Both the position numbers and the translations under genes were made by a program. Below are positions 1 through 60,806 of a DNA stretch of 64,000 nucleotides, in pieces. The notes below the pieces were generated by a model. It was given only the letters and a program-made list of their open reading frames with translations. It was not told the DNA's origin and did no database searches. The stretch comes from a virus. Lineage: Duplodnaviria > Heunggongvirae > Uroviricota > Caudoviricetes. The stretch lies in the IMG/VR virus record IMGVR_UViG_3300050821_008494. The stretch is one strand, 5' to 3'. Every line of letters begins with the position of its first letter. Positions within the stretch are counted from its first letter, which is position 1.

Positions 1-60
1 TGGGAAAGACACGACAGCTACGGCAAGAGATGGCGTAGACTCTCGGAGAAGAGCAAGGTA

Positions 61-249
61 GTGACAGCAGGCAAGGGAACACTACGTTGCGCCTTCTGCG
101 AAGGCTCAGGAAAGGACCCCAACTCATTCATCGTCCATCGTCCCTGCCAAGTTTGTCGTGGAACAGGAGCTGTCCCCATAAGCTCCTTGGCAAAGCCGGG
201 AGCCCAATACTCTAGGAAGACGTCTCTTTCCGGAGGTCAGAGAGCTTGA
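61..249 (+). CDS. small DnaJ-type zinc-finger protein (two CxxCxGxG motifs: CAFCEGSGK, CQVCRGTGA)
   Basis: ORF track; motif read from translation. Confidence 0.45.
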   Translation: MTAGKGTLRCAFCEGSGKDPNSFIVHRPCQVCRGTGAVPISSLAKPGAQYSRKTSLSGGQRA

Positions 250-409
250 GCGGTCGCAACGAACCAGAGTGCGAGAACGACGAGCTGCGCATCAGATTGG
301 TCAAAGGGATTCTCCAAGACAACCCGTTTGTCCGACAGGAGATAACCTCGTGGCTCGTCGGAGAGAACATCAAGGAAGCTCTGGGACTCAAGGAGGAGAA
401 GACCAAGAG

Positions 410-589
410 ATGACACTTCGACTTAGAGTAACAGCATCTCTCCTACTCATAGGTGCAGTCCTCATGGGAATCTCCTTCTTCGGAATCTACAGAGACCTCT
501 TCCTCTCAGTTGAGACGTGGGCTCTCTTGTTTGTCGTAGGCTTCATCATAGTCTACATAGCAGTAGAATCCCGGAGCTTTTCGAAATGA
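410..589 (+). CDS. small 2-TM membrane protein
   Basis: internal ATG at 410 preceded by AAGGAGGAG; hydrophobic translation; stop overlaps next start (ATGA). Confidence 0.4.
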   Translation: MTLRLRVTASLLLIGAVLMGISFFGIYRDLFLSVETWALLFVVGFIIVYIAVESRSFSK

Positions 590-876
590 GTCCGGAGCCT
601 CCGAAGAGATGGGCTGTCGTATCCTACTGCTTCGACACAGAAGGAGACACCTACGTCAGGGCAGACACCTTCTTAGAAGGAGCGGCAGGTCTCGCTCGCG
701 ACTACTATCAGAGGTGCATCGGTCACCACGGCACATCTCTTCTCGCCGGGGAAATTGTCAAGTGTCTTATTCTCCCTGACGGAGCAACAGCAACGAGAGT
801 TATTCTAACAGAGATTAAGGCTCTCGCCGAGTTCGACGGAACTGAGCAGTATCACTTGGAGGGTGACTACAGCTGA
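586..876 (+). CDS. hypothetical protein
   Basis: ATGA overlap with upstream gene; ORF track frame 517..876. Confidence 0.4.
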   Translation: MSPEPPKRWAVVSYCFDTEGDTYVRADTFLEGAAGLARDYYQRCIGHHGTSLLAGEIVKCLILPDGATATRVILTEIKALAEFDGTEQYHLEGDYS

Positions 877-938
877 GTCAGATTCACGAGGGACACAGGG
901 AAAGCCTCAGCATCCTACTGACCTCCGAGAACAGGCGC

Positions 939-1238
939 TTGGTAGAGTTCTCTCAGCGCCTTCACTCGGCTCTAGGAGACTTAGACGTATGGGATGAGGA
1001 GTTCCATTCCGGTATTCCCTACATCCAGATGACCTCGGAGCACACGTGCCGTGTTCTTCTTCCCGTCATGGCCTTTCTCAAAGACGGGAAGGACTACGAC
1101 GATATGGGGCTCTGTGTATACGTCGCATCAGACGGGACCTTCTTCGGAGAGACCAAAGTTGGAATCTACATCGACGGGAAACCGAACCCAGACATGAGAC
1201 TTCACGTCAATCCAAAACATCTGGACTTGATAGCATGA
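939..1238 (+). CDS. hypothetical protein
   Basis: ORF track. Confidence 0.4.
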   Translation: MVEFSQRLHSALGDLDVWDEEFHSGIPYIQMTSEHTCRVLLPVMAFLKDGKDYDDMGLCVYVASDGTFFGETKVGIYIDGKPNPDMRLHVNPKHLDLIA

Positions 1239-1369
1239 GTCAATGTAAGAACGGCGACCACTTCGAGTTCCCTGTATATGTAAAGGAATACTCCGTCAAG
1301 CTAGGAGAGGTATACTACAGTCAGCTCATGGTCCCTGCCTGTCCCAAGTGTGGAGTAGTTCTAGAATGA
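1235..1369 (+). CDS. small zinc-ribbon protein (C..C...CPKCG)
   Basis: ATGA overlap at 1235-1238; Cys pairs. Confidence 0.35.
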   Translation: MSQCKNGDHFEFPVYVKEYSVKLGEVYYSQLMVPACPKCGVVLE

Positions 1370-1542
1370 CCCAATACTCTACTCCTGCGGGAGTCACCTT
1401 CGAAGAAAAGTGCCCATACTGCGGAGTCCACGTTGAAGTCAGGAAGTTCTCCAATACTCCTACCATAACTATTCAGAGGCACAAGACTCCTAGAGGGCAC
1501 ACCTGTCCTGCTTCCGGGCTTAACGTCAAGGAGGTCTCTTGA
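1366..1542 (+). CDS. small zinc-ribbon protein (CPYCG...HTCP)
   Basis: ATGA overlap at 1366-1369. Confidence 0.4.
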   Translation: MTQYSTPAGVTFEEKCPYCGVHVEVRKFSNTPTITIQRHKTPRGHTCPASGLNVKEVS

Positions 1543-1546
1543 TGCT

Positions 1547-1566
1547 CCTTAAGATAAGCCCTGTTG
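1547..1566. repeat. 20-nt exact repeat CCTTAAGATAAGCCCTGTTG (copy 1)
   Basis: identical copy at 4518-4537; both upstream of gene starts. Confidence 0.6.
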
Positions 1567-1618
1567 TATCTGCCAGCGCAGAAGCCCTCATAAGCTACCG
1601 AAGCGAGGAGACTTCGAT

Positions 1619-2170
1619 ATGATGAAACTAGAATCAAAGCTCGACTGCGAGCAGAACAACTGCAAGATTCCCGCAATAGGCTTCATCTACTTCGCTGGAG
1701 GCGACACATTGATGCTGCTCTGCAAAGAGCATGAGAACGAACTCGCTAGAGAATTCTCAATCTTGGAGTTGGAGGAGTTCCTTTTCGACGACCCTGATTG
1801 GGCAGCGAAACTCGTCAAGCACATGAACGAGCGAGCCAATCGGAGAGCCGCAAAATACAGTCATCTCCTCCAAGAATACGACGAAGTCCGTGGCGCACGA
1901 GTTCCGGGAGGCAAGGACATAGAGCGGGTCTTCAGAGGTCTTGTCGCTTGGAAGAAAGTCTATCCAACAGTCAGAATAACTACCATGCTTGACGGTGCGA
2001 TAGATGAGGACAATCCTTCCGGAGTCTCAGACCCAGACCTCACAGACAAGAGACTTGCCGATGCCATAGAGAGGGTTGTTGCGACTCGTCTTCCAAAGCC
2101 GAAGTCGGAAGAATCCAGAGATGCTGACCTAGAGGAGCAGCAAGAGCGCAAGGAAGCAGGCGAGACCTAG
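1619..2170 (+). CDS. hypothetical protein with acidic C-terminus
   Basis: ORF track; preceded by conserved 20-nt upstream element. Confidence 0.45.
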   Translation: MMKLESKLDCEQNNCKIPAIGFIYFAGGDTLMLLCKEHENELAREFSILELEEFLFDDPDWAAKLVKHMNERANRRAAKYSHLLQEYDEVRGARVPGGKDIERVFRGLVAWKKVYPTVRITTMLDGAIDEDNPSGVSDPDLTDKRLADAIERVVATRLPKPKSEESRDADLEEQQERKEAGET

Positions 2171-2680
2171 ATGGTGCTTCCTTTTCTGACACTCAAGGTT
2201 TCAAAGGAGCCACAGGCTCTGAGGCCTAGAGTCGTCATAAGCGAGTTTGCTCTTCCAACAGACACTCGCATAGAGTCTCGCAGGGCGAATGCCAGAAGCA
2301 TACTGGCGGTCCTCGATATGATACGGTCCGCGAAGGCAGGGCAAATCGACTTAGTCATAGAGACTCAAAAGCTCAGCTCCATAGACCCTGCCATAGTGAA
2401 AGCCCTCGGAGGATTCGAAAACATGATTCCAGAGGAATGGAAGGTCTCGAAGTATCAACTCATCCCTCTCAAGGGCACACCGGAGGAGATGATGGCAACT
2501 TGGTCTATGAACGACTGGGCGATGATATGCGGAGAACTCTCTGCATATCATAGGGGAGAAACACCAGACGTTCGGACAGACACGATAAGAGCAGGTCGCA
2601 GGCTCGAAGAAGTTCTAGGTGCATACCAGAGCAAAATCTCAAAGCTCGAAGTAAAGAAGAAGAGGAAGTCATCGCGATGA
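2171..2680 (+). CDS. hypothetical protein, basic C-terminus
   Basis: ORF track; TAGATG junction. Confidence 0.45.
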   Translation: MVLPFLTLKVSKEPQALRPRVVISEFALPTDTRIESRRANARSILAVLDMIRSAKAGQIDLVIETQKLSSIDPAIVKALGGFENMIPEEWKVSKYQLIPLKGTPEEMMATWSMNDWAMICGELSAYHRGETPDVRTDTIRAGRRLEEVLGAYQSKISKLEVKKKRKSSR

Positions 2681-2976
2681 AATGTCAAATCGACGGCTGC
2701 GAGAACGAAGAGGAGATGCCAGAAGCCAAGGGCCACATCTACCCGAGCAAGTTCATACAGAAGGTGAAGCTCGCCAAGAATGGCGACATCATCAGTCCTC
2801 GTTACGGGCCTCGCCTCTGCACATCCTGCTCAGAGACAATTTACCATCTCTTCTGGCTCGAAAGTCACGGATGGTTCGACGGACTCCCGGAGAAGCTCAT
2901 AGAGCAGCAGGACAAGATAGACAAGGAGCGGGACAAATACAATCGGCTCGTTGCAGAGCTAGGAAGGAACGCCTAG
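2677..2976 (+). CDS. zinc-ribbon protein (CQIDGC...CTSC)
   Basis: ATGA overlap; Cys motifs. Confidence 0.45.
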   Translation: MKCQIDGCENEEEMPEAKGHIYPSKFIQKVKLAKNGDIISPRYGPRLCTSCSETIYHLFWLESHGWFDGLPEKLIEQQDKIDKERDKYNRLVAELGRNA

Positions 2977-3195
2977 CGTGGCATCTCTCCTAGAGCTTGC
3001 GATAGTCTACAATGGGTTCATGGGAGCATCTCTCTTGATTGGGACATCTAGCCTCTGGTGGCCAAAGAGGAAGAGCTGATATGATGTCTTTAGACGAATG
3101 GGCGAATACACCGGAGTCAAGATGCAAAACTTGCGGAGGTCTACTTCTAGTTCCTCATCCCAAAGGTTTGCACAGCCTCAAGGTGAACATCTGAC

Positions 3196-3708
3196 TTGAA
3201 CAAGTTGCAGGTCAAACCCGGTCCAAGAGTGAGTGTCTCTCTGTATTCACAAGAGCTTCAGAGTCTCCGAAAGAGGCTTCACGAACTTATAGCAGGAAGG
3301 AAATTCTTCATCATCCTAGTCACAGGAGACCGCAATTGGCCTTGGTCGGCTCGCTTCATCATAGGTAAGGCTCTCCAAGATGTCACCAGAACTCTCGCAC
3401 CGGACGTCTTCATAGTTCTCATAGAAGGAGGAGCCAAGGGAGCCGACTACTGCGCCAAGACCTACGCCGAGAAATGCGGTTGGGGAGTCCTCGAAGTCGA
3501 GGCTCATTGGGACCTCTACGGCAATCGGGCAGGCCCCGTCCGTAACAGGCAGATGTTCGAACTAGGGCAGAATGTCATCCTAGCCTTCCACGACGATTTG
3601 TCCAAGTCACGCGGGACGAAGAGCATGGTAGGAATCTGCACCGAATCTGGAAGTCAGGTAACGCTCTACGGCACAGATGGAAAGGCCTCTACTCTCGGAA
3701 GCGAGTGA
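3196..3708 (+). CDS. DUF2493/SLOG-superfamily (DprA/LOG-like Rossmann) protein
   Basis: motifs GGAKGADYCAKTYA and W.LYGNRAGPVRNRQM resemble the phage-associated DUF2493 family. Confidence 0.5.
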   Translation: MNKLQVKPGPRVSVSLYSQELQSLRKRLHELIAGRKFFIILVTGDRNWPWSARFIIGKALQDVTRTLAPDVFIVLIEGGAKGADYCAKTYAEKCGWGVLEVEAHWDLYGNRAGPVRNRQMFELGQNVILAFHDDLSKSRGTKSMVGICTESGSQVTLYGTDGKASTLGSE

Positions 3709-3712
3709 TAGC

Positions 3713-4003
3713 ATGGCAGACTGCTCAATACCCGGTTGCGACGGTGGAGCAATCACAATGGAGTATCTCTGCCCCAAACACAAGCAGGGCATAACGGGTC
3801 ACGAGCTATACCTTCTCGCAATGGAGAATGCGAAGCGCTGGAACCACGGGACCCTTCCGTCGGCCCACATCTGCTATGGCTTTCTCTTCAGCGCCCTCCA
3901 CTACCCAGACGAAGAGTTCAAGTTCAAAGTCCCTCCGATAACCCTAGTGGACTACAGCGGAATGATTCGCGACGGCGAACTCATTGAGGAGAAGAAGGCA
4001 TGA
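3713..4003 (+). CDS. hypothetical Cys/His-containing protein
   Basis: ATG at 3713 in frame of ORF 3677..4003. Confidence 0.4.
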   Translation: MADCSIPGCDGGAITMEYLCPKHKQGITGHELYLLAMENAKRWNHGTLPSAHICYGFLFSALHYPDEEFKFKVPPITLVDYSGMIRDGELIEEKKA

Positions 4004-4254
4004 TAACTCCAGAGCGCATACTGTCTAGATACTACCCTAGCATCGACGTCGTCTGCGAAGGCAACGAGAAAGAGAAGTGCGAGAGGAAGACCCCAATCCA
4101 CTACGGTAAACCATTCAGAACCGGTGCTAGCATGGCAACTAACGAACTGATGTGGGAATCCCTAGCAGAGCATATGCGTCAGAGTAGCCACACCAAGTTC
4201 TCCTTCGAACTGAAGGATGACCCCGACTGGAAACCAAAGGAGATACTACCATGA
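4000..4254 (+). CDS. hypothetical protein
   Basis: ATGA overlap. Confidence 0.4.
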   Translation: MITPERILSRYYPSIDVVCEGNEKEKCERKTPIHYGKPFRTGASMATNELMWESLAEHMRQSSHTKFSFELKDDPDWKPKEILP

Positions 4255-4517
4255 GACGCATAACCAAAATCCTCGCTCTCCTAATCGTAGCTTCAATCCT
4301 CCCGGACTTCCTTCTTCTTCTAGGCCTGTATCTCTACTACAACATACTCAATCCTTCTCTACTCTCCTACCCTGCCCCTCACTGGCTCCTGTCTCTTCTT
4401 CTCTGGCTTCCTGCCTCGTTGATAGTATCGGTATTCTCTAGCATAGCTCTCACGACTCTAGCTTTCTTTCCCAACTTTGACATCAGGAGGAAGAGCCCTG
4501 TTGCCTCAAACCAATAG
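4251..4517 (+). CDS. small membrane protein
   Basis: ATGA overlap; hydrophobic Leu-rich translation. Confidence 0.4.
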   Translation: MRRITKILALLIVASILPDFLLLLGLYLYYNILNPSLLSYPAPHWLLSLLLWLPASLIVSVFSSIALTTLAFFPNFDIRRKSPVASNQ

Positions 4518-4537
4518 CCTTAAGATAAGCCCTGTTG
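4518..4537. repeat. 20-nt exact repeat CCTTAAGATAAGCCCTGTTG (copy 2)
   Basis: see copy 1. Confidence 0.6.
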
Positions 4538-4553
4538 AACCCTGCGCGAGGGT

Positions 4554-5027
4554 ATGAAATTGGAAGACATTGAAGCGAAAGCTAAGGAATACGCTAGGGT
4601 CGCCCATGCAGGCAAAGTCTACGGCGACAATCAGAATTACTTCGAAGCTCATCTCACGAAGGTCGCCGACATCGTCGCCTCCGTTACAGATGACCCGGAG
4701 GTCATAGCAATGGCGTGGCTTCACGACATCCTAGAAGACACATCATTCAGAGACCTCTACGGACTCTTCGGTCTCAGAATCTCTGATGGAGTAATCTGCC
4801 TCACTCGCTACAAGGAATACAAAAGTCGCGAGAAAAACGAGGAGGTCTACATCAAGAAGCTCTCTGTTGCTCCTCCCGAAGTGAAGCTCGTCAAGCTCGC
4901 CGACATCATCGTCAACATTAGCAACCTCTCGACAAAGAAGGGTGACAAGAAATTCTACCTCCGCGAGAAGCTCACAGAGCTTCAGTCCATTGGACTTGAA
5001 TCCATCTACGAGGTCATAACATCTTGA
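4554..5027 (+). CDS. RelA/SpoT-type HD-domain hydrolase, small alarmone hydrolase (Mesh1/SAH)-like
   Basis: H..H...AWLHDILEDT...FGLRISDGVICLTR matches the Rel/Spo HD hydrolase signature (HDxxEDT, FG.xV..V.gvTK). Confidence 0.6.
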   Translation: MKLEDIEAKAKEYARVAHAGKVYGDNQNYFEAHLTKVADIVASVTDDPEVIAMAWLHDILEDTSFRDLYGLFGLRISDGVICLTRYKEYKSREKNEEVYIKKLSVAPPEVKLVKLADIIVNISNLSTKKGDKKFYLREKLTELQSIGLESIYEVITS

Positions 5028-5326
5028 GCGTCAAGGTAGACTACAGGCTCACAGAACGTTACACCTCCGACTATCATGCTACGTGGAAGGCAATCGAGGC
5101 AGAAGGCCTCATTCCATTAAAATCGTTCGATGGCAAAGTAGAAGTCATGGAGAGACGTCCTCATTGGTATGAACTAATCGGACCAACACCAATCGGGGAG
5201 CTTGACTTTTATGAATACGGTATAATCTTCGGAAGAGTCAGGGACAGAGCCACACTTCAGAGAGTCCTAGACCTAGCTCAGACCATATCGAAGGCTACCG
5301 GCAAGCACGTTGAGGTTAGACCGTGA
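5024..5326 (+). CDS. hypothetical protein
   Basis: ATGA overlap. Confidence 0.4.
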   Translation: MSVKVDYRLTERYTSDYHATWKAIEAEGLIPLKSFDGKVEVMERRPHWYELIGPTPIGELDFYEYGIIFGRVRDRATLQRVLDLAQTISKATGKHVEVRP

Positions 5327-5967
5327 GCCTCACAATCCCTCCCATAGTCAAAGTCATACCCAAGGGCCGCTCTGGCAAATGGTCTGTAGACCACTACACC
5401 CCGGAGGAAGACGAGGTTGCAGCAGAGAGCTACAAGTGGCATACCTACGGAGCCGGACTAGCTCGCTACACCCAGAAGGGAGGAACCTTTGCCGTCCTCA
5501 GAGACCACAGTATGTGGGGCTCCGGCGAAGTAGTCATGTCAGACACCCCAATGGAACGCGAGTCCAACCGCCAAGTCATAGAGCACGCCCACGGCAAAGT
5601 CCTCATCGCCGGTCTAGGCCTTGGGATGGTCGTTCTTCCTCTCTTCTCCAAGAAGGAAGCGACTTCAATCCTCGTAGTTGAGAAGGAGCAGGACGTCATC
5701 AATCTAGTCCTCAAACATCTCAAGAAGCTCGATAAGCGCAACAAGCTCACAGTAGTCCTCGGAGACATCAAGACCTACGAGACCACGGAGAAGTTCGACA
5801 CCATATACTTCGACATCTGGGAAGGCATCTCTGCCCAAATCTGGGAAGACTACAAGGAACTCAAGGCACGCTTCGCTCGCAACCGGGCGAAGGGCTTCTG
5901 GATGAGCTGCTGGATGAGGGAAGAAACCAGAGCCATGTTCCATAGTGAGAACCGGAGCGGATGGTAA
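5323..5967 (+). CDS. spermidine-synthase-like (PABS fold) class I SAM-dependent transferase
   Basis: GKVLIAGLGLGM (G-rich motif I), VVEKEQDV (acidic motif II), FDTIYFDIW. Confidence 0.4.
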   Translation: MSLTIPPIVKVIPKGRSGKWSVDHYTPEEDEVAAESYKWHTYGAGLARYTQKGGTFAVLRDHSMWGSGEVVMSDTPMERESNRQVIEHAHGKVLIAGLGLGMVVLPLFSKKEATSILVVEKEQDVINLVLKHLKKLDKRNKLTVVLGDIKTYETTEKFDTIYFDIWEGISAQIWEDYKELKARFARNRAKGFWMSCWMREETRAMFHSENRSGW

Positions 5968-5968
5968 A

Positions 5969-6544
5969 ATGGACGAGTGGAAAGAATCCATGAAGCGTCT
6001 CCCTCGCGATGAGAGGTTGGTAGTCCTTCACATCATGGAGGAAATCGAATCCGTTCGAGGTATGCGCTCCTCAATAGACCAGAAGGAAGTCGAGAGAGTC
6101 ACGACCTCCGTATTCAGCAAGGCAGAGGCTCTCGTGAAAGACGCCAACGACAGGCTAGAGGGCATCGACAAGTCTTTGGCCTCGGTCTTTCATAGGTTCG
6201 CTGTCGGAGTAATAGACACTCAGTCGTATGTAGTCTCCTCCGCTCTCGTCATAGGAGCCTTGTGCAAACTAATGGGTGCCAAGATAGAGTTCAGGATAAG
6301 ACCGGAGCACAAGAGCCGGTCTGGAGTCCTCTCCGAATTCGGAGACGGGTGGGTCCCCATCTCAACGGCCAATGGAGAGAAATTCCTCTTCAGAGTCGTG
6401 AAGGACGGCGTCCCTCTCCTCCCTCTACAAAGCCTTCTGGACGACGAATCTGCTCAGGCGTTTGTCACGTGGTCGAAGGGCTTAGACGGTGCCATAAAGA
6501 GGATTGGAACCATAGCAGAGGGGCCGGGAGCACAGGAGGAATGA
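5969..6544 (+). CDS. hypothetical protein
   Basis: ATG just after upstream stop, in frame of ORF 5945..6544. Confidence 0.4.
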   Translation: MDEWKESMKRLPRDERLVVLHIMEEIESVRGMRSSIDQKEVERVTTSVFSKAEALVKDANDRLEGIDKSLASVFHRFAVGVIDTQSYVVSSALVIGALCKLMGAKIEFRIRPEHKSRSGVLSEFGDGWVPISTANGEKFLFRVVKDGVPLLPLQSLLDDESAQAFVTWSKGLDGAIKRIGTIAEGPGAQEE

Positions 6545-6759
6545 GCACCGCAACAGATGAAGAGCACTGGCGTAGGATATACTGGCTTACAACATGTGTT
6601 CTATTCGGTCTCTTCTGTCTCGGACTCTCCGGACTATTCGTGATAGGATGGGATTCTGAGACTCCTGCCGTTGTGAGATACTTCTTCGTGGCAGCCTTCC
6701 TAATTCTGTCCGCTATGTTCGACATAATGGGGATTGCAGGATGGAGAAGGAGACACTGA
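6541..6759 (+). CDS. small membrane protein
   Basis: ATGA overlap; two hydrophobic helices. Confidence 0.35.
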   Translation: MSTATDEEHWRRIYWLTTCVLFGLFCLGLSGLFVIGWDSETPAVVRYFFVAAFLILSAMFDIMGIAGWRRRH

Positions 6760-7049
6760 AACAAGACTTCTTCGACGAAGAGAAGGCAAAGTATGACAGA
6801 GCCTTCCCTAGTCTCTCCAAGGTCTTCCCGAAGAACGTCTACATCGCTCTAGGCCCCATGATGGTAAAGCTCCAATGGCTCATGGAAGGTCAGTGCAGAA
6901 TCTGCTCGGGTTGGAATTGCGACCGATACGTCATAGGCCACTACAAAATCCTCGGTCAGAACGTCAACGGAATCTGCACAACCTGCTTTCTGAGCCTCCT
7001 GAAGTTCAAGAAGCTCGCGAGAGTCGTGAAGCCGAGCGAGATGAAATGA
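6741..7049 (+). CDS. zinc-finger protein (CRICSGWNC...CTTC)
   Basis: ORF track. Confidence 0.4.
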   Translation: MEKETLKQDFFDEEKAKYDRAFPSLSKVFPKNVYIALGPMMVKLQWLMEGQCRICSGWNCDRYVIGHYKILGQNVNGICTTCFLSLLKFKKLARVVKPSEMK

Positions 7050-7050
7050 A

Positions 7051-7179
7051 ATGGGTCTCGAATGCCGGAACTGCCACACCATAGGGAAAATTAACTCCAA
7101 CAGCGACGGCTCTCTCTACTGCCTAGCCTGCGATACTCGGCTCAAGCCAAGCGAAGTCATAATGACACCTCCACTCTAG
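7051..7179 (+). CDS. 42-aa zinc-ribbon peptide (CRNC...CLAC)
   Basis: found by hand; below ORF-track length cutoff. Confidence 0.25.
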   Translation: MGLECRNCHTIGKINSNSDGSLYCLACDTRLKPSEVIMTPPL

Positions 7180-7187
7180 TGACAACA

Positions 7188-7706
7188 ATGATTACAACTC
7201 GTCAAATTCGCTCCCTCTTCATCTCAGTAATAGGCCTGCGTTTGTCGGCTCTTTTCATTACAGTCTACGCTCTCAACTTCAGCCACTTCTACGAGAAGGA
7301 CCCTGCAGTCAGCCCAATCTTCGACACAGTCGGGACGGTCGGAGGAACCTTCATCTACACAGTCATCCTCCTCTTCGCCCTGCTACTCATCTACGACTCT
7401 CTAGCCAAGACCCATGAGCAATGGCATGGCTGGATATTCGGCACATACTACCTAGTCCTCCTCATAACATTCCTCGACGTCCTGAATGACGTCTTCATAG
7501 TCTTCCTGCCTACTCTCTACCTCTACTTCTCCGACGTCACGGCTCTCACAATCCTCTTCTTCGCGCAAGGCGCAGGAGTCCTAGTCGGACTACACATCAT
7601 GTCAATGGCAAACTTCCAAGTCAAAACCCGTGCCCAGAGATTCGCCGTTGATGCTCTTATCTGGCCGGTTAAGCTCATCAAAGTCTACAGGAGAAGACCT
7701 TCATGA
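7188..7706 (+). CDS. polytopic membrane protein
   Basis: ATG at 7188 in frame of ORF 7179..7706; multiple TM segments. Confidence 0.45.
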   Translation: MITTRQIRSLFISVIGLRLSALFITVYALNFSHFYEKDPAVSPIFDTVGTVGGTFIYTVILLFALLLIYDSLAKTHEQWHGWIFGTYYLVLLITFLDVLNDVFIVFLPTLYLYFSDVTALTILFFAQGAGVLVGLHIMSMANFQVKTRAQRFAVDALIWPVKLIKVYRRRPS

Positions 7707-7945
7707 CTTCTGAATCAAAGAAGAAGTTCTGGACTCTGCCAAGAGTTATTCTCTATGTGTTCTTCTTCTCCTTTTTCGTGACTCCTCAAATCGCAATAGA
7801 ATTCTTCGGAGGCTACCCTCTAGGAGTTCAGAGACTCTACAACATACTTTTGTCAGCTTTCCCTTACGTCACGGTAGCAGTGGTTGCCGTTACGGCGACT
7901 CTCGCAGCACTCATCCTGCTTTTCGGAAAGGAGAAGAAAAAGTAA
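7703..7945 (+). CDS. small membrane protein
   Basis: ATGA overlap. Confidence 0.4.
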   Translation: MTSESKKKFWTLPRVILYVFFFSFFVTPQIAIEFFGGYPLGVQRLYNILLSAFPYVTVAVVAVTATLAALILLFGKEKKK

Positions 7946-8275
7946 ATGCCTCGCTGCGTCGTCTGTGGAACAACCGAAGGTCTCGAACTCGACAAGGGCC
8001 GCTACAAGTGCCCAGACCATCGCGGCTCCCTCGAAGAGATTGAGTCCAAGATTCCCTTCGTTGACCCTTTCCCGGAGGTCGCCATTATGATAGAGACCCT
8101 TGAAGGGAGACCTCACGTTCATAAGGACAGGAACTCAGATGTCATCAAAGCGAGCGTCACTTGGGACTACGTCCTCAAGGAGAAAGCCAAGAGAGAGGCT
8201 CGCGAGAACTCTCCAAGGAAGATTCCAAGCCAAGCCGACATATCACGCCAAGAGGTGAAGACGAGATACCACTAA
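7946..8275 (+). CDS. zinc-ribbon protein
   Basis: CVVCG...CPDH. Confidence 0.4.
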   Translation: MPRCVVCGTTEGLELDKGRYKCPDHRGSLEEIESKIPFVDPFPEVAIMIETLEGRPHVHKDRNSDVIKASVTWDYVLKEKAKREARENSPRKIPSQADISRQEVKTRYH

Positions 8276-8505
8276 CCTCAGACTTCATCCTTGGCCTCTC
8301 TCTTGGCCTGTCTCTCGGAGTCTTCCTCTACATAGTAGTCCTCCTGCTCAACTCCTCTCGCTCATTCTGTCATCGCTGTCACAAGCCAATTTACGTGAGG
8401 CCTGTCATAATCAAGGACGAGAACGCTAACGACTTCGAAGAATGGCGCAGCTATCATCGCAAGTGTTACATGATAGCTCACGGCAAAGAGGAGGTCACTA
8501 CTTAG

Positions 8506-8634
8506 ATGCCGAAGGCCAAAATAAAGCGCACCAAGAAGAAGAATCCTATGACTTCCGAGTCCCTTATGAGAGAGGCAACAGAACGAATCGAGAAAATGTG
8601 GGAGCGCAATGAGAAGGAAGTCAAAGCGCTATGA
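8506..8634 (+). CDS. small basic protein
   Basis: TAGATG junction; stop overlaps next start (ATGA). Confidence 0.3.
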   Translation: MPKAKIKRTKKKNPMTSESLMREATERIEKMWERNEKEVKAL

Positions 8635-8888
8635 ATCTCGATACATTCTTCCTCTTCAGTCAGGGTTTCATAACAGGCTACTTCGTAGGAATACTCTCAG
8701 TTGTAATTTTCATGGTCTATGTGACAGCCAGAGACCAATGCGAGGTCTGTAAGAAGGACATATGGTTCAGGACACTAGAGATTGTAGAGCCTCAGCTGAC
8801 ATACGAAAACGGCTACCGCTATCACAAGCGCCACACATACCACAGAGACTGCTACTCTAATCGTCTCCCGAAGGGGATTCAGGTTTGA
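8631..8888 (+). CDS. membrane-anchored Cys/His protein
   Basis: N-terminal TM then CEVCKK...H..H..C. Confidence 0.4.
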   Translation: MNLDTFFLFSQGFITGYFVGILSVVIFMVYVTARDQCEVCKKDIWFRTLEIVEPQLTYENGYRYHKRHTYHRDCYSNRLPKGIQV

Positions 8889-9045
8889 GGCTAGTCCTTC
8901 CTACAGTCTCCCTTGGAGCCTGCTCGTGCTCCTACTGTATCTCCTTCTTCTCCATCAGGGACATGAACCTCCTAGACAAGCACCAATACCAAGGCCATCT
9001 CGTAGGATGTCACGGACTTCACTTCGCAACCAAGGAAGACCTCCG

Positions 9046-9609
9046 ATGATACGCAAGCTCGAAGTCCTAACAGACGGCTCGGAGACGAACCGCTCCGGAA
9101 AGAGAATCCATGTCTACGCCTTCGTAATCAACAGCTTCGAAACCATCAGCTTCGATGGCGGCACTGAGATGTATCGAGAGTCCGGAGCAGAAATTGAGCC
9201 ACGTATGGGCTACGAGAAGCGCTACGCAGAATGGCTTGCCTTCTCCAAGGCAGTTGACTACATTGCCAAGTTCCTCGACGAAAACAGAACACCGAACCTC
9301 AAAGTAGAGTTCTACTCAGACTACACACCCCTCGTAAGATTCCTCAGAGGAACACAGGCGATAAAGAGGGCAAGAGCCCAATATATCGCCAATATGATGC
9401 AGCGCCCTCAATCCATACTCAAGAGATTTGGCGACGTCTCCTTCTTCCATGTGGAGCGGAACCGCATCAGAGAGGCAGACCTTCTGGCTCGAAGAGAGCG
9501 CAAGTTCCAAGAGCAGATAGCAAGTAGTAACAGCAATGTTCCCTACGTGCTTCTGTATGCTCAGGAACCGGACGGAATCAAAGTCATTCGAAAGGAGTCT
9601 AGACTTTGA
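9046..9609 (+). CDS. ribonuclease H (RNase HI-like)
   Basis: catalytic DEDD pattern: LTDGS ... E ... SDY ... FHVERN..EADLLAR, collinear with E. coli RNase HI; alternative ATG at 9007. Confidence 0.6.
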   Translation: MIRKLEVLTDGSETNRSGKRIHVYAFVINSFETISFDGGTEMYRESGAEIEPRMGYEKRYAEWLAFSKAVDYIAKFLDENRTPNLKVEFYSDYTPLVRFLRGTQAIKRARAQYIANMMQRPQSILKRFGDVSFFHVERNRIREADLLARRERKFQEQIASSNSNVPYVLLYAQEPDGIKVIRKESRL

Positions 9610-9943
9610 GCAGCCTCTACGCCTACACAGCAGGCTGGTGCACTCACTCGTGTAGCCATCACAGCGAGCTTGTCTGTAGAGCGGATAAATGCACAGCCAT
9701 AGGAATAGCAAATCCTCCTCCTGTTCTACCAAGAGGACCTCATACTCACATTCAGCAGCCTTCCTACAGAAGGAGTCGTAACCGTCATCGGGGTGTTAAA
9801 GTCCCGGAGGACGACATGGACTCAAGAGCCTCTCCTCAAGAGAATCCTGTCAACAGAGACCCGTAAATACTCGCGCCGCTTTCTCTCCCTCCAGAGAGCG
9901 ACAGAAACGTGCGTCAGAGTCGAACCCCGCAGAGGTATGGGAC

Positions 9944-12900
9944 ATGAGTCTGAACGCACTTTCTCCAACGTCGGTCGGAAGAAATTCTCCCGCATTCTCC
10001 CCGACTTCAGTATTCAACGCACCAACCGCTGTTGGCTATGTCCCGGCTCCCGTAAACCCTAACCCATCTCTCAAAGTTGACACCTCTCCCTCTGCTCATC
10101 TTAATCCTGCGAAAGTCTCGGCAGCTACCTCGAATGCCGCAGCTCTCAATCAGACTCTTGCTGCCAACGCCTCTCAAAAGTTTCTGACAATCACGATGCC
10201 AGACGGCTCAACCGTCTACGCCGAATACGGAAGAGTCGTGCCCCAAGCTCGCTTCCAGAACGACATGGCAGCGGCAGGCCTCAGTGCTACTCTTCAGCAG
10301 AACAAGAGTTCCCCGTTTGCTCAGATTCAAACTCCAAACGGAATAGTCTACGCGGAGAACGGAGTTGTCGTCTCCGCAGAGCAGTTTACCAGAGACCTCG
10401 CGGCATCTGGCATAGCTCAGACCTTGAAGCAGAACGCTAGTCAATCCTTCGTCCAGATTCAGACCGACTCAGGAATCATCTACGCCGAGAAGGGAGTCCA
10501 AGTCTCTGCTGCCAAGTTCCAGCAGGACCTCCAGAATGCGCAAGCTCCCAATCCGAAGACTCTAAACTTGTTCAGCAAGCTCTCTCTCAATCAACAGGCT
10601 AACTCCCTCTCTACTCTCTCCGAGCTTATAGCAAACCTGAAGGCAGAACTGGGTTCTTCGCCTTCATCTGACCGTGTGAATGCCTACAACCAAGCCGTCA
10701 ACACCTACAACCAAGAGACCTCAATCTACAACGCTGGAGCGAACAAGGCTAACGCGGCCTCCCAAGCTCAGGCAAGCGCAATCCTCTCACTCTCCGGGCA
10801 AACTCTAAGTGCCCTGACTCTTTCTCAGTATCTGAACAACGAGGGAGTCAACCAGCCTACGATAACAGTCAACGGGAAGTCTATGACTCTAAGTCAATAC
10901 GCTCAGCAGAACCCTTCTCAGAAGTTTGCTGTGACTGCTACCAAGAGCGCAGACGGCACAGTGAACTTCTCTCTCAAGAGCACAACGGCTCCAGCAGCGT
11001 CCGCTCCAAAGTCATCTCCGGTTGAGAGCGCGTCAGCTACTGCTTACAACGACATCACTGCAGGATTCACTGACCTCTTTAGAGCCGGAGTCTCAACCGG
11101 CATAGCCACAAGACAGGCCGCAGCCAAAGTGGGAATAGGCAAGGCCCCGCCGAAGGGCACTCAGCCCTCAGACCTCAGCCTCCTCGGATTCTCCGAGGCA
11201 GAGACAGAGCAGTTTGCAGGGAGCACGGCAGGCTACCTATTCCCCGGCGCTGCGGTCTTGAAGGGCATCGGAAGCCCCGGCGAAGGAACAGGAGCCAGAC
11301 TCTTCGACATAGGCGTTGGTGTCCTTCCATTCCTTCCTCTCGGAGACGTAGCAGGCGTAGCCGCAAAAGCAGGAGGTAAGGCAGCAACCGTGGCGAAGTT
11401 CGGAACATCGTTTGCCGGCAGGACCCTAATCGGTTCTGGATTCGGAGCAGTAGGAGGCCTAGCATACGGTGAAGACCCTCTCCAAATCGGAGAGAGCGCC
11501 CTTCTTGGTGGACTCTTCGGAGGACCCGGAGGCAGCATCGCAAGCCGTGTCAGTGGTAGGCTCGGAGAATCGCTGAGTGGCGCAACATCAAGCATCTCTC
11601 AGAAGCTCAAGGTTTCAGACGTCGGTGTAGCAGTAGCCAAGGCCAAAGTTGCTCTGAGCAGGCCACAGAACCCCGGTTCTAACTTCATGGCAAGCATAGA
11701 CCAACTCTTTGGGAGAGAGCCCGGTCTTGCCGAGGAAGAGTCCATAGACTACTACGCCGTAGGCAGTCGGACAAGCACCACTGCCAGAGGAGCGCCCATA
11801 CGCAGTGGCCTTACTCAGGACATAGTCCGAGAGTCCTCAGACGCTATCGGTGGTTTGGCGGGTCTTTCATCTCGGCGTAGCTTCATTGAGAACTACCTCA
11901 GCGAAGGCATACCAAGCCAATACGAGGAGTCTGCCCAAGTCCAAATAGAAAGCTCTCGCTCCGTTGCCAAGGGAGGCCCCCCAACTTCAAAACTCGCAGA
12001 TGAATTCCGTTTCGTCAAGGGTCTCGAAGAGGGCTCAGGAGGCCCCGAGCTGATGCTCAGAACAAAATCAGACCGTGCACTCTATGAGGACCAGCTCAAT
12101 TTTGGACGCCTAGACGACTACTTCGGTGTCAAGTCTTCGGAAGAGGGAGTTGGTGAGTCTACCGCTTCCAAGAGTCAGAAGGTTGGGGATGTAGCATCTC
12201 TTCAGAGAGGTGCCCAAGAACTTAACGACATCGACTCACTGTTTTCGCAGGAGCAGGAATCTGCCAAGGTTGCCAAGGCCGCGAGGGTAGCAAAGGCTAC
12301 TGACGACACTTCTGGTCAGACTGAAGTGGCTTCCAAGAGCGGACAATCTTCAATGCAAGTTGCTCGTGAAGAGGAGACTTCCACTCTCATGAGCATAGAT
12401 GACATGGTGGCTGAATCTCGTCCTGCGACTACAGGACGCAGTAGACCGAGGATTGACTACGACTACCTCTCATACACACCTTCTCCTCCCGGTTACGAAG
12501 GACCTTCGATTGGAGAGCGTTCCTACGACCCAACCCAATCATATCTCTCCGGACTCCGCAACGAGGTCCGCGCACCATCAGACCAAGGCACATCCTCCTT
12601 CCTGAACTCCTACCTCGGACTTGGCGGTCGTTCGTCACTAGGACTAGGTTCAGGCCTCGGTCTCGGAACAATCCAGCCTCTCGGACTTAGAGCACCGTCC
12701 GTCCTCGGGCTCGGTCTCTCAGAGACCTCAATCCTCGGCCTCGGTCAAGCTACCCAGATGCAGCAGCTCCTCGGAGTCCAGAGCGTCCAAGCTACCGTTC
12801 AAGCTACACAACAGGTTCAGACAACGGAGACTACTACTCGCACAATCCTCGAAGAGATTGGCGACTATACTCTGGCAGACGAGTTGACAACCAACGAGGA

Positions 12901-13111
12901 CTTTTCATTCCTCCCTCCACTTCAAAGTGATGTCCCAGAGCAGCCGAGGCGAAGCAGGAAGCGGACCGTCTACAAGCCTACCAAAGTCAGGAACCGTATT
13001 GCCCTGAACATAGCAGGCAGCTTCGGCGACGTCGCAGAGGACCTCTTGGGCGACATGTCGTCCGGCCTCATGGACTTCGGCGCAGAAGGAATACTCGGAG
13101 GCCTCTTCTGA
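9944..13111 (+). CDS. large (1055 aa) virion-associated or structural protein
   Basis: three tandem ~57-aa repeats at N-terminus (about nt 10170-10540), Gly-rich hydrophobic core and C-terminal LGLG repeats; no signal peptide. Confidence 0.55.
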   Translation: MSLNALSPTSVGRNSPAFSPTSVFNAPTAVGYVPAPVNPNPSLKVDTSPSAHLNPAKVSAATSNAAALNQTLAANASQKFLTITMPDGSTVYAEYGRVVPQARFQNDMAAAGLSATLQQNKSSPFAQIQTPNGIVYAENGVVVSAEQFTRDLAASGIAQTLKQNASQSFVQIQTDSGIIYAEKGVQVSAAKFQQDLQNAQAPNPKTLNLFSKLSLNQQANSLSTLSELIANLKAELGSSPSSDRVNAYNQAVNTYNQETSIYNAGANKANAASQAQASAILSLSGQTLSALTLSQYLNNEGVNQPTITVNGKSMTLSQYAQQNPSQKFAVTATKSADGTVNFSLKSTTAPAASAPKSSPVESASATAYNDITAGFTDLFRAGVSTGIATRQAAAKVGIGKAPPKGTQPSDLSLLGFSEAETEQFAGSTAGYLFPGAAVLKGIGSPGEGTGARLFDIGVGVLPFLPLGDVAGVAAKAGGKAATVAKFGTSFAGRTLIGSGFGAVGGLAYGEDPLQIGESALLGGLFGGPGGSIASRVSGRLGESLSGATSSISQKLKVSDVGVAVAKAKVALSRPQNPGSNFMASIDQLFGREPGLAEEESIDYYAVGSRTSTTARGAPIRSGLTQDIVRESSDAIGGLAGLSSRRSFIENYLSEGIPSQYEESAQVQIESSRSVAKGGPPTSKLADEFRFVKGLEEGSGGPELMLRTKSDRALYEDQLNFGRLDDYFGVKSSEEGVGESTASKSQKVGDVASLQRGAQELNDIDSLFSQEQESAKVAKAARVAKATDDTSGQTEVASKSGQSSMQVAREEETSTLMSIDDMVAESRPATTGRSRPRIDYDYLSYTPSPPGYEGPSIGERSYDPTQSYLSGLRNEVRAPSDQGTSSFLNSYLGLGGRSSLGLGSGLGLGTIQPLGLRAPSVLGLGLSETSILGLGQATQMQQLLGVQSVQATVQATQQVQTTETTTRTILEEIGDYTLADELTTNEDFSFLPPLQSDVPEQPRRSRKRTVYKPTKVRNRIALNIAGSFGDVAEDLLGDMSSGLMDFGAEGILGGLF

Positions 13112-13262
13112 TGCAAGAACGCTGTGGCCACTGCGGTCATCCTCCTCATGCAGGTGTCTGCTTGAAGAGAGGACTTAGGTCAGGGCACGATTGTGGCTGC
13201 ACGAACTACGAGTCCAACGTCCAGATGCTCGGAGAATCTTGGGTCAAGGAGGCAGGAGTCTA
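13110..13262 (+). CDS. small Cys/His zinc-binding protein
   Basis: TGATG overlap; ends ...WVKEAGV (embedded SD). Confidence 0.35.
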
Positions 13263-13263
13263 G

Positions 13264-13425
13264 ATGCCAAAGAAGTTCAAGGTCTACTACCGGCCACCGA
13301 AGGTCAGGACTGCAATCTATCAAGGAATCTTCGAGGACGAGACAGAAGAAGGGGCACGCAGGAAGGCCATAGCGAATTATCCAGCTATGGTATTCGAATT
13401 CACGGGGGCCTTGGAAATTGGCTAA
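13264..13425 (+). CDS. small hypothetical protein
   Basis: ATG 8 nt after GGAGGCAGGAG. Confidence 0.35.
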   Translation: MPKKFKVYYRPPKVRTAIYQGIFEDETEEGARRKAIANYPAMVFEFTGALEIG

Positions 13426-13732
13426 CCAGCCAGCCTACATCTGGGCAATAGTCTTCTCATCCATCGGCCTCTTCCTCACATGGTTCGGCTACAAGCTCCT
13501 CGTCCCGGTCTTCAACATGACTGTCGGCTCCGTCGCTCCGGGCTACCCCGCGATGGTAAACAACAACCCGACCTACGTCAATGGATTCAATACAATCGTC
13601 TCCGAGGTCAACATACTCTTCCAATACTCCTTTGCCGTGATAGGCCTCGGCATCGTCGCCGTCTTCGTAGTCATCTTCGCATACCGCACTGTCTTCGGCT
13701 CCACAGCTGCATCCTACGAGGAGGCCTACTAA
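13418..13732 (+). CDS. membrane protein (2 TM)
   Basis: TTG start overlapping upstream stop; ORF track. Confidence 0.45.
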   Translation: MANQPAYIWAIVFSSIGLFLTWFGYKLLVPVFNMTVGSVAPGYPAMVNNNPTYVNGFNTIVSEVNILFQYSFAVIGLGIVAVFVVIFAYRTVFGSTAASYEEAY

Positions 13733-14043
13733 TGAACACCCGCAAACTCCTCAACCGATTCTTCGGCAAGAAGCGCCATGCAGTCGGAGGGTGGGTCATC
13801 GCCGTAGTCTTTCTGGGTTTGATAGTCTTCGCCTTCATAATGACTCCAATCAACTTCCTCCAGAACTCAATAAACACATGGACATCAGTTCAGCCCGGCT
13901 TCACGGCATCATACGACCCAAGCACTAACACTTTCATGGACTTGCTACTTTCTGCAGGTCTTGCAATCATGGTAGCCTTCGGAGCCATCATAGAGATAGT
14001 CAATGTGACTCAGAAGAGGACGAGTGGGGAGGAGGTCATCTGA
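13732..14043 (+). CDS. membrane protein (2 TM)
   Basis: TAATG junction; hydrophobic segments. Confidence 0.45.
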   Translation: MNTRKLLNRFFGKKRHAVGGWVIAVVFLGLIVFAFIMTPINFLQNSINTWTSVQPGFTASYDPSTNTFMDLLLSAGLAIMVAFGAIIEIVNVTQKRTSGEEVI

Positions 14044-14044
14044 C

Positions 14045-14233
14045 ATGGGGCACGCTAATAAGACGGAGTCTTGTCAGATTTGCGGGGCAGTGATAGGTCC
14101 GTTCCATGTCTACTCGACAGGAACCAAGATGATGGCAAAGCATCTCAAGACTCATGGAGTAGCAGCGGAGCCTTACATCGCTCAATACTCCGACGACACC
14201 ATCAGGTGGCTGAAAGAGGCCGGGGTGCTCTAG
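14045..14233 (+). CDS. small zinc-binding protein (CQICG...H..H)
   Basis: ends ...WLKEAGVL (embedded SD). Confidence 0.4.
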   Translation: MGHANKTESCQICGAVIGPFHVYSTGTKMMAKHLKTHGVAAEPYIAQYSDDTIRWLKEAGVL

Positions 14234-14234
14234 A

Positions 14235-16115: not shown

Positions 16116-16528
16116 TGAACATGGCAGGAATCGTGGTATGGTGCATCCTCATGGGAGCTTGCGTCACGTTCGTCAACGGGCTCGGACTGTTTGCCGCTAC
16201 CCTCTCACAGCCGGGAGCCCCATCCGTGACTTCGGCACTCCAGAACACAAGCTGTAAGATTAGCGCCTCCGGCCTCCCCTACAACTGCACAGGCAACACA
16301 AACTCTCCCGGAGGCTCTCCGACTACAGTCCAGACCTTCGGCAACTTCATCTGGTCGTTTGTTCAGGCTCTTCCTACAATCGCTCAAGGGGCACTTACAC
16401 CGGGCTCAATCGCCAACTCATGGTTCGGAGGAATCGGAGCAGTGGTCAACGTAGTGATGCTAATCCTTCTCTCTCTTTGGGGTTGGTCGGTAGTCGGCAA
16501 CAGAGACCCGCAGTTCAAGCCAGAGTGA
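16115..16528 (+). CDS. secreted or membrane protein (137 aa)
   Basis: ATGA overlap; signal peptide and C-terminal TM. Confidence 0.5.
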   Translation: MNMAGIVVWCILMGACVTFVNGLGLFAATLSQPGAPSVTSALQNTSCKISASGLPYNCTGNTNSPGGSPTTVQTFGNFIWSFVQALPTIAQGALTPGSIANSWFGGIGAVVNVVMLILLSLWGWSVVGNRDPQFKPE

Positions 16529-16535
16529 CAACAAT

Positions 16536-17885: not shown

Positions 17886-17888
17886 AGT

Positions 17889-23362: not shown

Positions 23363-23677
23363 ATGAAAACCAAGCGCACCCGGCTCCAGATGAAGGTAGA
23401 CGTCCTCACTCATCTTCACAACAACGGCTCCTTCGCGAAAACAGCAATCATGCTTACCTGTAACTTCTCTTGGGTAGTCATCTGCGAGATAATATCTAAC
23501 CTAGAGAGCATAGGCCTCATATCAGAGAACTCCGAATCCAAGTGGGGCATCACATCGAAGGGAATAGACCTCCTAAACTCTCTAAAGGACTCATCTCAAT
23601 CTATCGACCTAGACGGCAAGCTTGCATTCTTGGGGCTCTTGCCTATTACTACTGAACAGCCCATCTTAAATAACTGA
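23363..23677 (+). CDS. winged-helix DNA-binding protein (putative regulator)
   Basis: wHTH-like pattern; perfect palindrome immediately downstream. Confidence 0.4.
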   Translation: MKTKRTRLQMKVDVLTHLHNNGSFAKTAIMLTCNFSWVVICEIISNLESIGLISENSESKWGITSKGIDLLNSLKDSSQSIDLDGKLAFLGLLPITTEQPILNN

Positions 23678-29564: not shown

Positions 29565-29863
29565 CGACAGAAGAGCGGGTCATCAGAACCTCCCTGTCAG
29601 TCTTCGACAAGGTCCTGTTAGCCGCTTCATTCCTAGTAGGCTTCACCTGTGCAGGCTTCGAGACACTAGGTCTTCAGGCCGTCTTCCGTGCACTCTCTGA
29701 TGCTTATCCAAACACTCCTAACGCTCAGTATGGAGAGATATTCGCAGACTTCGTCTTCGGAGTCCTCACATTCCTAGTCTCCATGTCAACATTCCTCCGA
29801 ATAGCCGACTTAGTCGATTCCCGGATTCACCCGAAGCCGGTTACCCCAGAGGCCCGGTCATGA
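29561..29863 (+). CDS. membrane protein
   Basis: ATGA overlap. Confidence 0.4.
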   Translation: MTTEERVIRTSLSVFDKVLLAASFLVGFTCAGFETLGLQAVFRALSDAYPNTPNAQYGEIFADFVFGVLTFLVSMSTFLRIADLVDSRIHPKPVTPEARS

Positions 29864-57826: not shown

Positions 57827-57832
57827 GCCCAC

Positions 57833-60791: not shown

Positions 60792-60806
60792 CCCACGGCT
60801 ATTAAA

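Follow-up and report, generated by a model that had tools for sequence, protein, structure and literature searches.

Within the DNA stretch of 64,000 nucleotides analyzed here (hereafter the window), which forms part of the element represented by the IMG/VR virus record IMGVR_UViG_3300050821_008494, an open reading frame (ORF) of 157 aa, running from ATG to TGA and occupying exactly positions 4554 to 5027 of the plus strand, encodes a protein whose assignment as a single-domain RelA/SpoT-homologue (RSH) hydrolase, or small alarmone hydrolase (SAH), is supported by sequence profiles and a structural model. Judging from the sequence, the model, and the analogy with characterized phage enzymes, we consider it reasonably probable that the protein is a catalytically competent SAH that erases alarmone-type signals of growth arrest or abortive infection. 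A first-pass annotation, made from the letters of the window, had delimited this ORF and quoted from its translation the peptide AWLHDILEDT...FGLRISDGVICLTR, and both are indeed found in the sequence. An alternative start, the TTG at 4560, lies 6 nt downstream of the ATG and yields a protein of 155 aa; this start was the one chosen by the public gene callers, probably because the Shine–Dalgarno-like GAGGGT at 4546–4551 is better spaced for that TTG than for the ATG. The choice between the two starts is without effect on the HD_4 domain.

The Pfam family HD_4 (PF13328) was matched with 35.5 bits (gathering score, 27.2; E = 1e-8), residues 10–132 being aligned to positions 1–134 of the 156 in the profile, and the PHROG family 990, annotated as 'metal-dependent phosphohydrolase', with E = 7e-28, while the NCBIfam spoT_relA models (TIGR00691) were matched over the N-terminal hydrolase segment only. 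Besides HD_4, no other Pfam domain was found in the protein, so that its architecture is that of an SAH: the hydrolase domain alone, with neither a synthetase nor a TGS or an ACT domain. Because the protein is just 157 aa long, there is no room in it for a synthetase domain. The earlier claim of a Rel/Spo HD hydrolase signature unaccompanied by a synthetase domain is therefore borne out, HD_4 being above its cut-off and the sole domain present; and the profile search against HD_4 and RelA_SpoT that had been proposed as a check placed the protein among the HD_4/RelA–SpoT hydrolases rather than among the dNTPases or phosphodiesterases. In the PDB sequence search (E ≤ 0.03), the hydrolase domains of SpoT and Rel were the best matches (E from 5e-10 to 1e-8), the others being Mesh1 from Drosophila and from human, bacterial SAHs (P. 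aeruginosa, C. glutamicum, Listeria), and Aph1. A profile of the first homologues retrieved thousands of HD_4-only proteins of 150–190 aa, many of which are named guanosine-3',5'-bis(diphosphate) 3'-pyrophosphohydrolase, the named proteins coming from Pseudomonadota. An exhaustive HMMER search returned 5386 cluster representatives at E ≤ 1e-3 and 166 at E ≤ 1e-10; below 1e-30 only the protein itself was recovered. On this evidence from sequence, the 157-aa protein belongs to a very large family, within which it is divergent.

The active site is intact. H18, H33, H57, D58, E61, D62, K114, D117, and N121 were invariant, together with a few structural residues, in an alignment of 65 sequences, and the same columns were kept in at least 253 of the 257 sequences of a broader alignment (in at least 254 when H18 is left aside). 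When aligned by HMMER with SpoT and with the Rel of B. subtilis, the metal ligands H33, H57, D58, and D117 (conserved in at least 255 of the 257 sequences) fall on H53, H77, D78, and D144 of RelSeq; the catalytic pair E61–D62, contained in HDILED, falls on E81 and D82, and N121, contained in KLADIIVN, on N148. The Mn-binding and catalytic residues whose inspection the first-pass annotation had recommended are thus all present, and invariant across the relatives. AlphaFold2, when supplied with the 65-sequence alignment, predicted an all-helical domain with a pLDDT of 93.2 and a pTM of 0.90. A Foldseek search of the PDB gave 26 chains at E ≤ 1e-3, all of which were SAH, Mesh1, Aph1, or Rel/SpoT hydrolase domains (TM-score on the query, TMq, 0.63–0.84), the top matches being the P. 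aeruginosa SAH (PaSAH), Mesh1, RelH, and Aph1. In a viral structure library the matches were HD or (p)ppGpp-hydrolase proteins of phages and giant viruses, with gp152 of the Vibrio phage Ceto in first place.

In the mechanism that we propose, the single HD-fold domain would bind Mn2+ through H33, H57, D58, and D117, and the E61–D62 pair would hydrolyze the 3'-diphosphate from (p)ppGpp and/or (p)ppApp, with the 3'-pyrophosphorylated CCA ends of tRNA constituting a possible further substrate. The gene would belong to a group of small genes, early or auxiliary, of an element whose replication probably takes place in an uncultured archaeon, and its product would erase the growth-arrest or abortive-infection signals generated by RelA/SpoT-type synthetases of the host, as has been shown for the SAHs of the phages SSU5 and PVP-SE1. 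A role in counter-defense, or more generally in alarmone manipulation, is suggested by analogy with such phage SAHs as have been tested. Phages and prophages often encode stand-alone SAHs; those of the Salmonella phages SSU5 (PaSpo) and PVP-SE1 (PbcSpo) neutralize every toxSAS tested; and the authors of that work proposed that incoming phages bypass alarmone-mediated abortive infection via their SAHs (Jimmy et al., 2020; PMC7229694). The PaSpo of SSU5 is, in addition, routinely used for CapRel detoxification (PMC9712102). Relatives of the window protein were matched in 119 GenBank phage records, and at least 389 were confirmed in IMG/VR, which prevalence indicates that the novelty that the first-pass annotation had implied for a virus-borne stand-alone SAH was slightly overstated.

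The SSU5 and PVP-SE1 enzymes resemble the window protein in being virus-encoded, in consisting of a single HD_4 domain, in having no adjacent synthetase, and in possessing the same catalytic residues (BLASTP against SSU5_099, E = 1e-8 with 28% identity over 144 aa; against PVP-SE1 gp220, E = 4e-9 with 38% over 89 aa, a partial match). They differ in their hosts, which are enterobacteria, whereas that of the element is probably an archaeon; and in the base-binding loop, where SSU5 exhibits the canonical GQKRKY and PVP-SE1 Q-K-D-K, but the window protein G-K-V-Y-G. The closest relatives among GenBank phages, CDS_72 of the Acinetobacter phage vB_AciJM_313 (38% identity) and gp152 of the Vibrio phage Ceto (34%), do share a Tyr-Gly/Ala loop with the window protein; they differ from it in belonging to tailed bacteriophages and in having recognizable replication or lysis genes as neighbors. 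As a separate observation, the Ceto gp152 (positions 1489–1950 of the locus retrieved) has, in VKKAAMMVN, an Ala at the position of the metal ligand D117 (D144 of RelSeq), so that this particular relative may be catalytically impaired.

Several observations weigh against the role in alarmone erasure that we favor, the first of which concerns the base-binding loop. In the (p)ppGpp hydrolases, the residues R44-K45-S46 of RelSeq and R43-R44-S45 of TtRel, in a loop that follows the GQ motif and precedes the first metal-binding His, stack on and form hydrogen bonds with the guanine; in the (p)ppApp-specific Aph1 that loop contains D24-K25-A26, and the double substitution D24R/R119A restores ppGpp hydrolysis (PMC10083569). 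In the window protein, the HMMER alignments place Y23-G24-D25 where those guanine-binding residues would be, and the stretch from the GQ motif to H33 is without a basic pair. Because of this replacement of the guanine-binding residues, (p)ppGpp is perhaps not the preferred substrate. Second, archaea have RSH enzymes only rarely and sporadically (PMC3153485), and neither H. volcanii nor S. acidocaldarius yielded detectable (p)ppGpp (PMC8646023); hence, if the host is archaeal, the target signal would be a putative one, since the synthetases would be rare and the alarmone has gone undetected in two model archaea. Third, there is no conserved operon around the SAH gene, and consequently no gene neighborhood that ties it to a defense or counter-defense module: between the element and 80 SAH loci of IMG/VR no neighboring gene was shared, that for the upstream YAcAr-family SLOG protein included, and the two contigs carrying the closest SAH relatives had no other gene in common with the element.

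With respect to the loop, the idea that the Tyr-Gly substitution is peculiar to this element was rejected, since it recurs in phage and metagenomic SAHs: the pattern GQxY[GA] is common to the closest relatives (six proteins) and occurs likewise in the Acinetobacter phage vB_AciJM_313, in the Vibrio phage Ceto, in several IMG/VR loci, and, among the clusters at 50% identity, in dozens of those nearest to the protein. These loops were compared by motif; the automatic MAFFT alignment of the 257 sequences misplaces them. Aph1 (7smg), from a Bacteroides temperate phage (PMC10083569), is like the window protein an SAH of a mobile element that lacks an Arg at the guanine-stacking position. From its signature of D24, R96, D116, R119, K133, and Y134, the C-terminal Tyr is matched by Y135, whereas Y23-G24 stand here in place of D24-K25, Tyr being the equivalent of D24; 7smg is matched weakly in sequence (E = 0.0075); and Aph1 is encoded beside its cognate toxin Apk2, no such gene being found here. 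The removal of a 3'-pyrophosphate is accordingly well supported, by sequence and model, as the predicted chemistry; with the Tyr-Gly pocket, the preferred base or substrate may differ from that of the (p)ppGpp hydrolases.

As to the host, we deem it quite likely that the element resides in an archaeon. The region ~50800–63400 contains a glycan or nucleotide-sugar cluster—with a methyltransferase/GT2, an FMN reductase, a PylC-like ATP-grasp protein, a PIG-L deacetylase, an SDR dehydratase, a GT1 glycosyltransferase, a DegT aminotransferase, and an aldo-keto reductase—that is syntenic, at 38–61% identity, with a mobile-element-like metagenomic contig of 67 kb and 70% GC, and whose nearest relatives in cellular genomes belong to an uncultured archaeon. 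Two metagenomic contigs of 60–67 kb (the syntenic one among them) and one short one with similar identity being set aside, the best homologue of the sugar dehydratase (59% identity) lies on a contig of 659,683 bp from the metagenome-assembled genome (MAG) of the uncultured archaeon MFD09222.bin.1.112; the homologue listed next has 47% identity, and among the named ones Bathyarchaeia come next, with 44%. Close to that archaeal dehydratase gene are those for a DegT aminotransferase and a GT1 glycosyltransferase (43 and 48% identical to the window's, respectively), along with an HTH_45 protein, an OGG-type glycosylase, and a weak match to the ribosomal protein L13e. The window itself encodes an HTH_45 winged-helix protein of 104 aa (23363–23677, plus strand; 47.8 bits against a gathering score of 25.5), whose sole PDB match is, weakly (E = 0.69), the archaeal chromatin or DNA-binding protein Sso10a; and a multi-pass membrane protein of 305 aa (47900–48817, plus strand) whose C-terminal part, with a GLGD motif, gave a sub-threshold match to presenilin (27.7 bits against 34.3), so that a GxGD intramembrane protease is possibly encoded there.

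Compositional data point in the same direction. The tetranucleotide usage correlated best, in a small comparison, with a fragment of the archaeal MAG (r = 0.74; GC 54.5% vs. 52.5%), the coefficients being 0.22–0.47 for two bacterial and 0.13–0.25 for three phage fragments, which result is suggestive of an archaeal host. In positions 1–20000 of the window, sigma-70 promoter-like sites were not enriched (14 vs. 10.5 ± 3.9) and hairpins resembling intrinsic terminators were, if anything, scarcer than in the shuffled control (10 vs. 17.3 ± 3.8); these counts are consistent with a nonbacterial transcription without being proof of it. No clear archaeal TATA consensus was found in the intergenic regions, and Shine–Dalgarno-like motifs, present before about half of the genes, do not discriminate between the domains. 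Against an archaeal host, all the named relatives of the SAH are bacterial or from phages, and several genes of the element match PHROG families. The remark in the first-pass annotation that, should the host be archaeal, the substrate would be in question is in view of the glycan genes, the HTH_45 protein, and the tetranucleotide usage probably pertinent. The sole precedent that we found on an archaeal element is the Asgard element 10H_0, for which a 'bifunctional (p)ppGpp synthase/hydrolase' is annotated and mentioned in passing (Medvedeva et al., bioRxiv 10.1101/2021.07.29.453957), and which resembles the present case in bearing an RSH-type gene on a large (84.5 kb) circular archaeal element without an identifiable capsid gene. 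A survey of Bathyarchaeia viruses makes no mention of an RSH-type gene.

If the protein is not directed at an alarmone, it could be a metabolic phosphatase of the Mesh1 kind, which would remove the 2'- or 3'-phosphate from NADPH, 3'-phosphoadenosine-5'-phosphosulfate (PAPS), or a similar cofactor and thereby reprogram the redox or sulfur metabolism of the host, and not its signaling. Such an activity would suit a host devoid of (p)ppGpp, would be compatible with the scarcity of RSH enzymes in archaea and with the absence of the guanine-recognition residues, and has a parallel in the related proteins of giant viruses whose eukaryotic hosts lack a stringent response. The highest TM-scores obtained were, moreover, those of the human and Drosophila Mesh1 (3nqw, 5vxa, 9chy; TMq 0.81–0.84), the NADPH and PAPS complexes among them, and these metazoan enzymes, for which a role as NADPH phosphatase has been reported, are likewise single-domain proteins. 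Their identity to the window protein is, nevertheless, of 20–22%, and their sequence similarity (E = 7e-7 for Drosophila and 0.03 for human) is weaker than that of the Rel/SpoT hydrolase domains; bacterial and phage SAHs of the same fold act on alarmones; and Mesh1 itself also has hydrolytic activity toward (p)ppGpp as well as (p)ppApp. The best Foldseek E-values (2e-6 to 2e-5; TM 0.69–0.79) belong to the PaSAH (6yvc, 6z3n) and the C. glutamicum RelH (7qod), proteins of the same length class that differ from that of the window in being 25–27% identical to it and in being chromosomally encoded bacterial (p)ppGpp hydrolases, with the PaSAH acting also on (p)ppApp. We hold the cofactor-phosphatase alternative to be unlikely.

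Improbable, in our estimation, is a function in self-immunity, in which the SAH would be the type IV antitoxin of an alarmone-synthesizing or tRNA-pyrophosphorylating toxin encoded by the same element, after the manner of FaRel–ATfaRel or Apk2–Aph1. SAHs do serve as antitoxins or immunity proteins beside toxSAS or MuF-Apk2 toxins, also in temperate phages; but such pairs are normally adjacent, and the immediate neighbors of the SAH gene match neither synthetases nor defense systems. The ORF scan extended over ~79 kb (the window plus flanking sequence) of an element of ~114 kb. No RelA_SpoT synthetase domain (PF04607) was present in the neighbors or in any other ORF scanned over that length, the remaining ~35 kb being where a toxin gene of this sort would have to lie.

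Type III CRISPR systems are common in archaea, and the signal degraded might conceivably be another immune nucleotide, such as a messenger of the type III CRISPR, CBASS, or Thoeris type, with the nearby SLOG protein as part of the same counter-nucleotide module. The gene for that YAcAr-family protein does lie 850 nt upstream in the same string of genes. Both SLOG and HD enzymes have been considered as components of nucleotide-centered conflict systems in phages, and jumbo phages in particular encode 'HD-alarmone PDEases' and YAcAr SLOG domains that were interpreted as counter-nucleotide systems (PMC7824862). Yet the activities known for the RSH-type HD fold are confined to the removal of 3'(2')-phosphate or pyrophosphate, the SLOG and SAH genes were not conserved neighbors in the 80 other viral loci, and PADLOC gave no match for the SAH or for nine other proteins, so that we judge this explanation very improbable. 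Finally, that the protein should be an unrelated HD phosphohydrolase (a phosphodiesterase, say, or a dNTPase) or a binding protein devoid of catalytic activity is scarcely credible and has been largely refuted by the profile, PDB, alignment, and Foldseek results, inasmuch as the generic HD model PF01966 was matched only weakly (E = 0.0024) and under its own cut-off while HD_4 surpassed its own, all the catalytic residues are intact, and the structural matches are exclusively of the RSH type.

Turning to the element that carries the putative alarmone-erasing SAH, we found the window to be 100% identical to parts of two metagenomic contigs, logan:SRR7094834_1056510 (114,176 bp) and ena:ERZ27253567:k141_5335843 (114,287 bp). 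These contigs break at different positions, that from the ENA ending at window position 2949, and therefore the genome would be circular or circularly permuted; the element is, then, apparently one of ~114 kb with either of those topologies. With both contigs identical to the window, neither population variation nor dN/dS could be derived. The ORFs are nearly all on the plus strand. Pfam matches were obtained for ~14 of the ~86 proteins scanned, and no capsid, portal, or terminase was found among these with Pfam or PHROG; the label 'virus-like element' used in the first-pass annotation is thus reasonable, with the restriction that, strictly, we are dealing with a virus-like mobile element in which none of those three hallmarks has been identified. 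The tRNA and Rfam scans of the window were empty. No similarity was detected by megablast of 25 kb against the GenBank phages, nor any match by tblastn of the 626-, 449-, and 391-aa proteins against the same phages, by PDB sequence searches with the 626-, 1055-, and 391-aa proteins, or by a scan of GTDB genomes with the 1055-aa protein; IMG/VR scans with the ATPase-like protein described below and with the SAH as single query gave no close relatives of the element. In those searches, the element is an orphan without known relatives.

The SAH gene forms part of a string of short, co-directional genes at 3196–6544 that overlap through their stop and start codons (Table 1). The protein encoded by the first of these is predicted to bind or process nucleotides or derivatives of NAD. 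The overlap of the SAH stop codon with the start of the following ORF makes a translational coupling possible; that 100-aa ORF had no Pfam, PHROG, or PADLOC match, and its single-sequence AlphaFold2 model was unusable (pLDDT 41). Upstream of the SAH gene is a 20-nt motif, CCTTAAGATAAGCCCTGTTG, present in 2 exact copies in the window, where 0.01 would be expected, and in just those 2 copies across 78.8 kb of the element. It is seen also in an alignment of the regions upstream of the SAH gene and of the ORF 1619–2170. The core TTAAGATAA is located ~33 nt before the SAH ATG; the 3' half, AGCCCTGTTG, is repeated at 4494–4503. The motif is a candidate promoter or operator, possibly common to both genes.

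Table 1. Positions in the window of the SAH gene, the neighboring genes and motif copies, and two genes of the glycan cluster whose limits were redefined.
Feature	Position	Strand	Evidence or remarks
20-nt motif CCTTAAGATAAGCCCTGTTG, second exact copy	1547..1566	+	53 nt upstream of ORF 1619-2170 (ORF annotated without function)
YAcAr-family SLOG protein, first gene of the string	3196..3708	+	Pfam PF10686, 36.1 bits (gathering score 28.2); PHROG 289, 6e-22
20-nt motif CCTTAAGATAAGCCCTGTTG, copy	4518..4537	+	3' end 17 nt before the SAH ATG
Stand-alone RSH hydrolase (SAH) gene	4554..5027	+	ORF; HD_4; PHROG 990; AlphaFold2 and Foldseek; invariant active-site residues
100-aa ORF	5024..5326	+	Begins with a TTG overlapping the stop codon of the SAH gene
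Class-I S-adenosylmethionine methyltransferase-like protein, next in the string	5323..5967	+	PHROG 15480 'methyltransferase', 8e-23; Pfam PRMT5 and Spermine_synth weak, under cut-off
GT1 glycosyltransferase	59652-60791	-	Public gene calls; syntenic 67 kb contig
DegT aminotransferase	~60807-61919	+	Public gene calls; syntenic 67 kb contig

Other regions of the element deserve mention in their own right. In the glycan cluster, a mechanically delimited plus-strand ORF of 678 aa (59883–61919) is not a single gene, according to the public gene calls and the syntenic 67 kb contig, which correction yields the last two entries of Table 1. A run of large Thr/Ser/Asn-rich proteins of 626, 137, 449, 907, and 253 aa (14235–20612 and 29860–30621, plus strand), with N- and/or C-terminal hydrophobic anchors and without homologues in Pfam, the PHROGs, the PDB, or the GenBank phages, are from these features candidates for the virion or surface glycoproteins of an unfamiliar type of virus. 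The 391-aa protein at 37021–38196 (plus strand), for which no homologue appeared in the searches made, contains a Walker-A-like GDRFQGKS and a helix-turn-helix-like C-terminal tail and is possibly the packaging or replication ATPase of the element. The noncoding stretch at 38628–38921 (…ACATTTGTATATAGTTATGTTACGAATCTGTGTTTTGTTATATG…) is unusually AT-rich for a genome of otherwise 52% GC and may contain a strong promoter or an origin. The 337-aa protein at 31506–32519 (plus strand), with an N-terminal membrane anchor and a match to PHROG 200 'lipoprotein' (4e-27), may, to judge from its sequence, be a membrane scaffold of the SPFH/band-7 type.

Since virus-encoded stand-alone SAHs are already numerous and two of them have been shown to neutralize toxic alarmone synthetases, the window protein, with its standard active site, adds little as a protein. 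What is unusual, to a modest degree, is the presence of a copy on a novel virus-like element of ~114 kb whose host is probably archaeal, and the variant Tyr-Gly pocket. That base-binding loop, in being recurrent in many viral SAHs, constitutes a cheap and well-defined target for the biochemistry of substrate specificity. If the element does infect an archaeon, the gene would be one of very few of the RSH type on an archaeal mobile element, and the SAH could be used as a probe for alarmone-like or 3'-pyrophosphorylated nucleotides in the stress or antiviral responses of archaea. In a further hypothesis, which we advance tentatively and as having a minor chance of being correct, the element would be a virus of an uncultured archaeon (TACK- or Bathyarchaeia-like) that has kept an active SAH to counter a growth-arrest or antiviral system of its host based on a 3'-pyrophosphorylated nucleotide or on tRNA pyrophosphorylation, the Tyr-Gly pocket being tuned to a substrate other than a guanine nucleotide. 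If true, this hypothesis would mean that archaea, a domain from which (p)ppGpp signaling has been held to be essentially absent, do possess a stress or immune pathway of the alarmone type.

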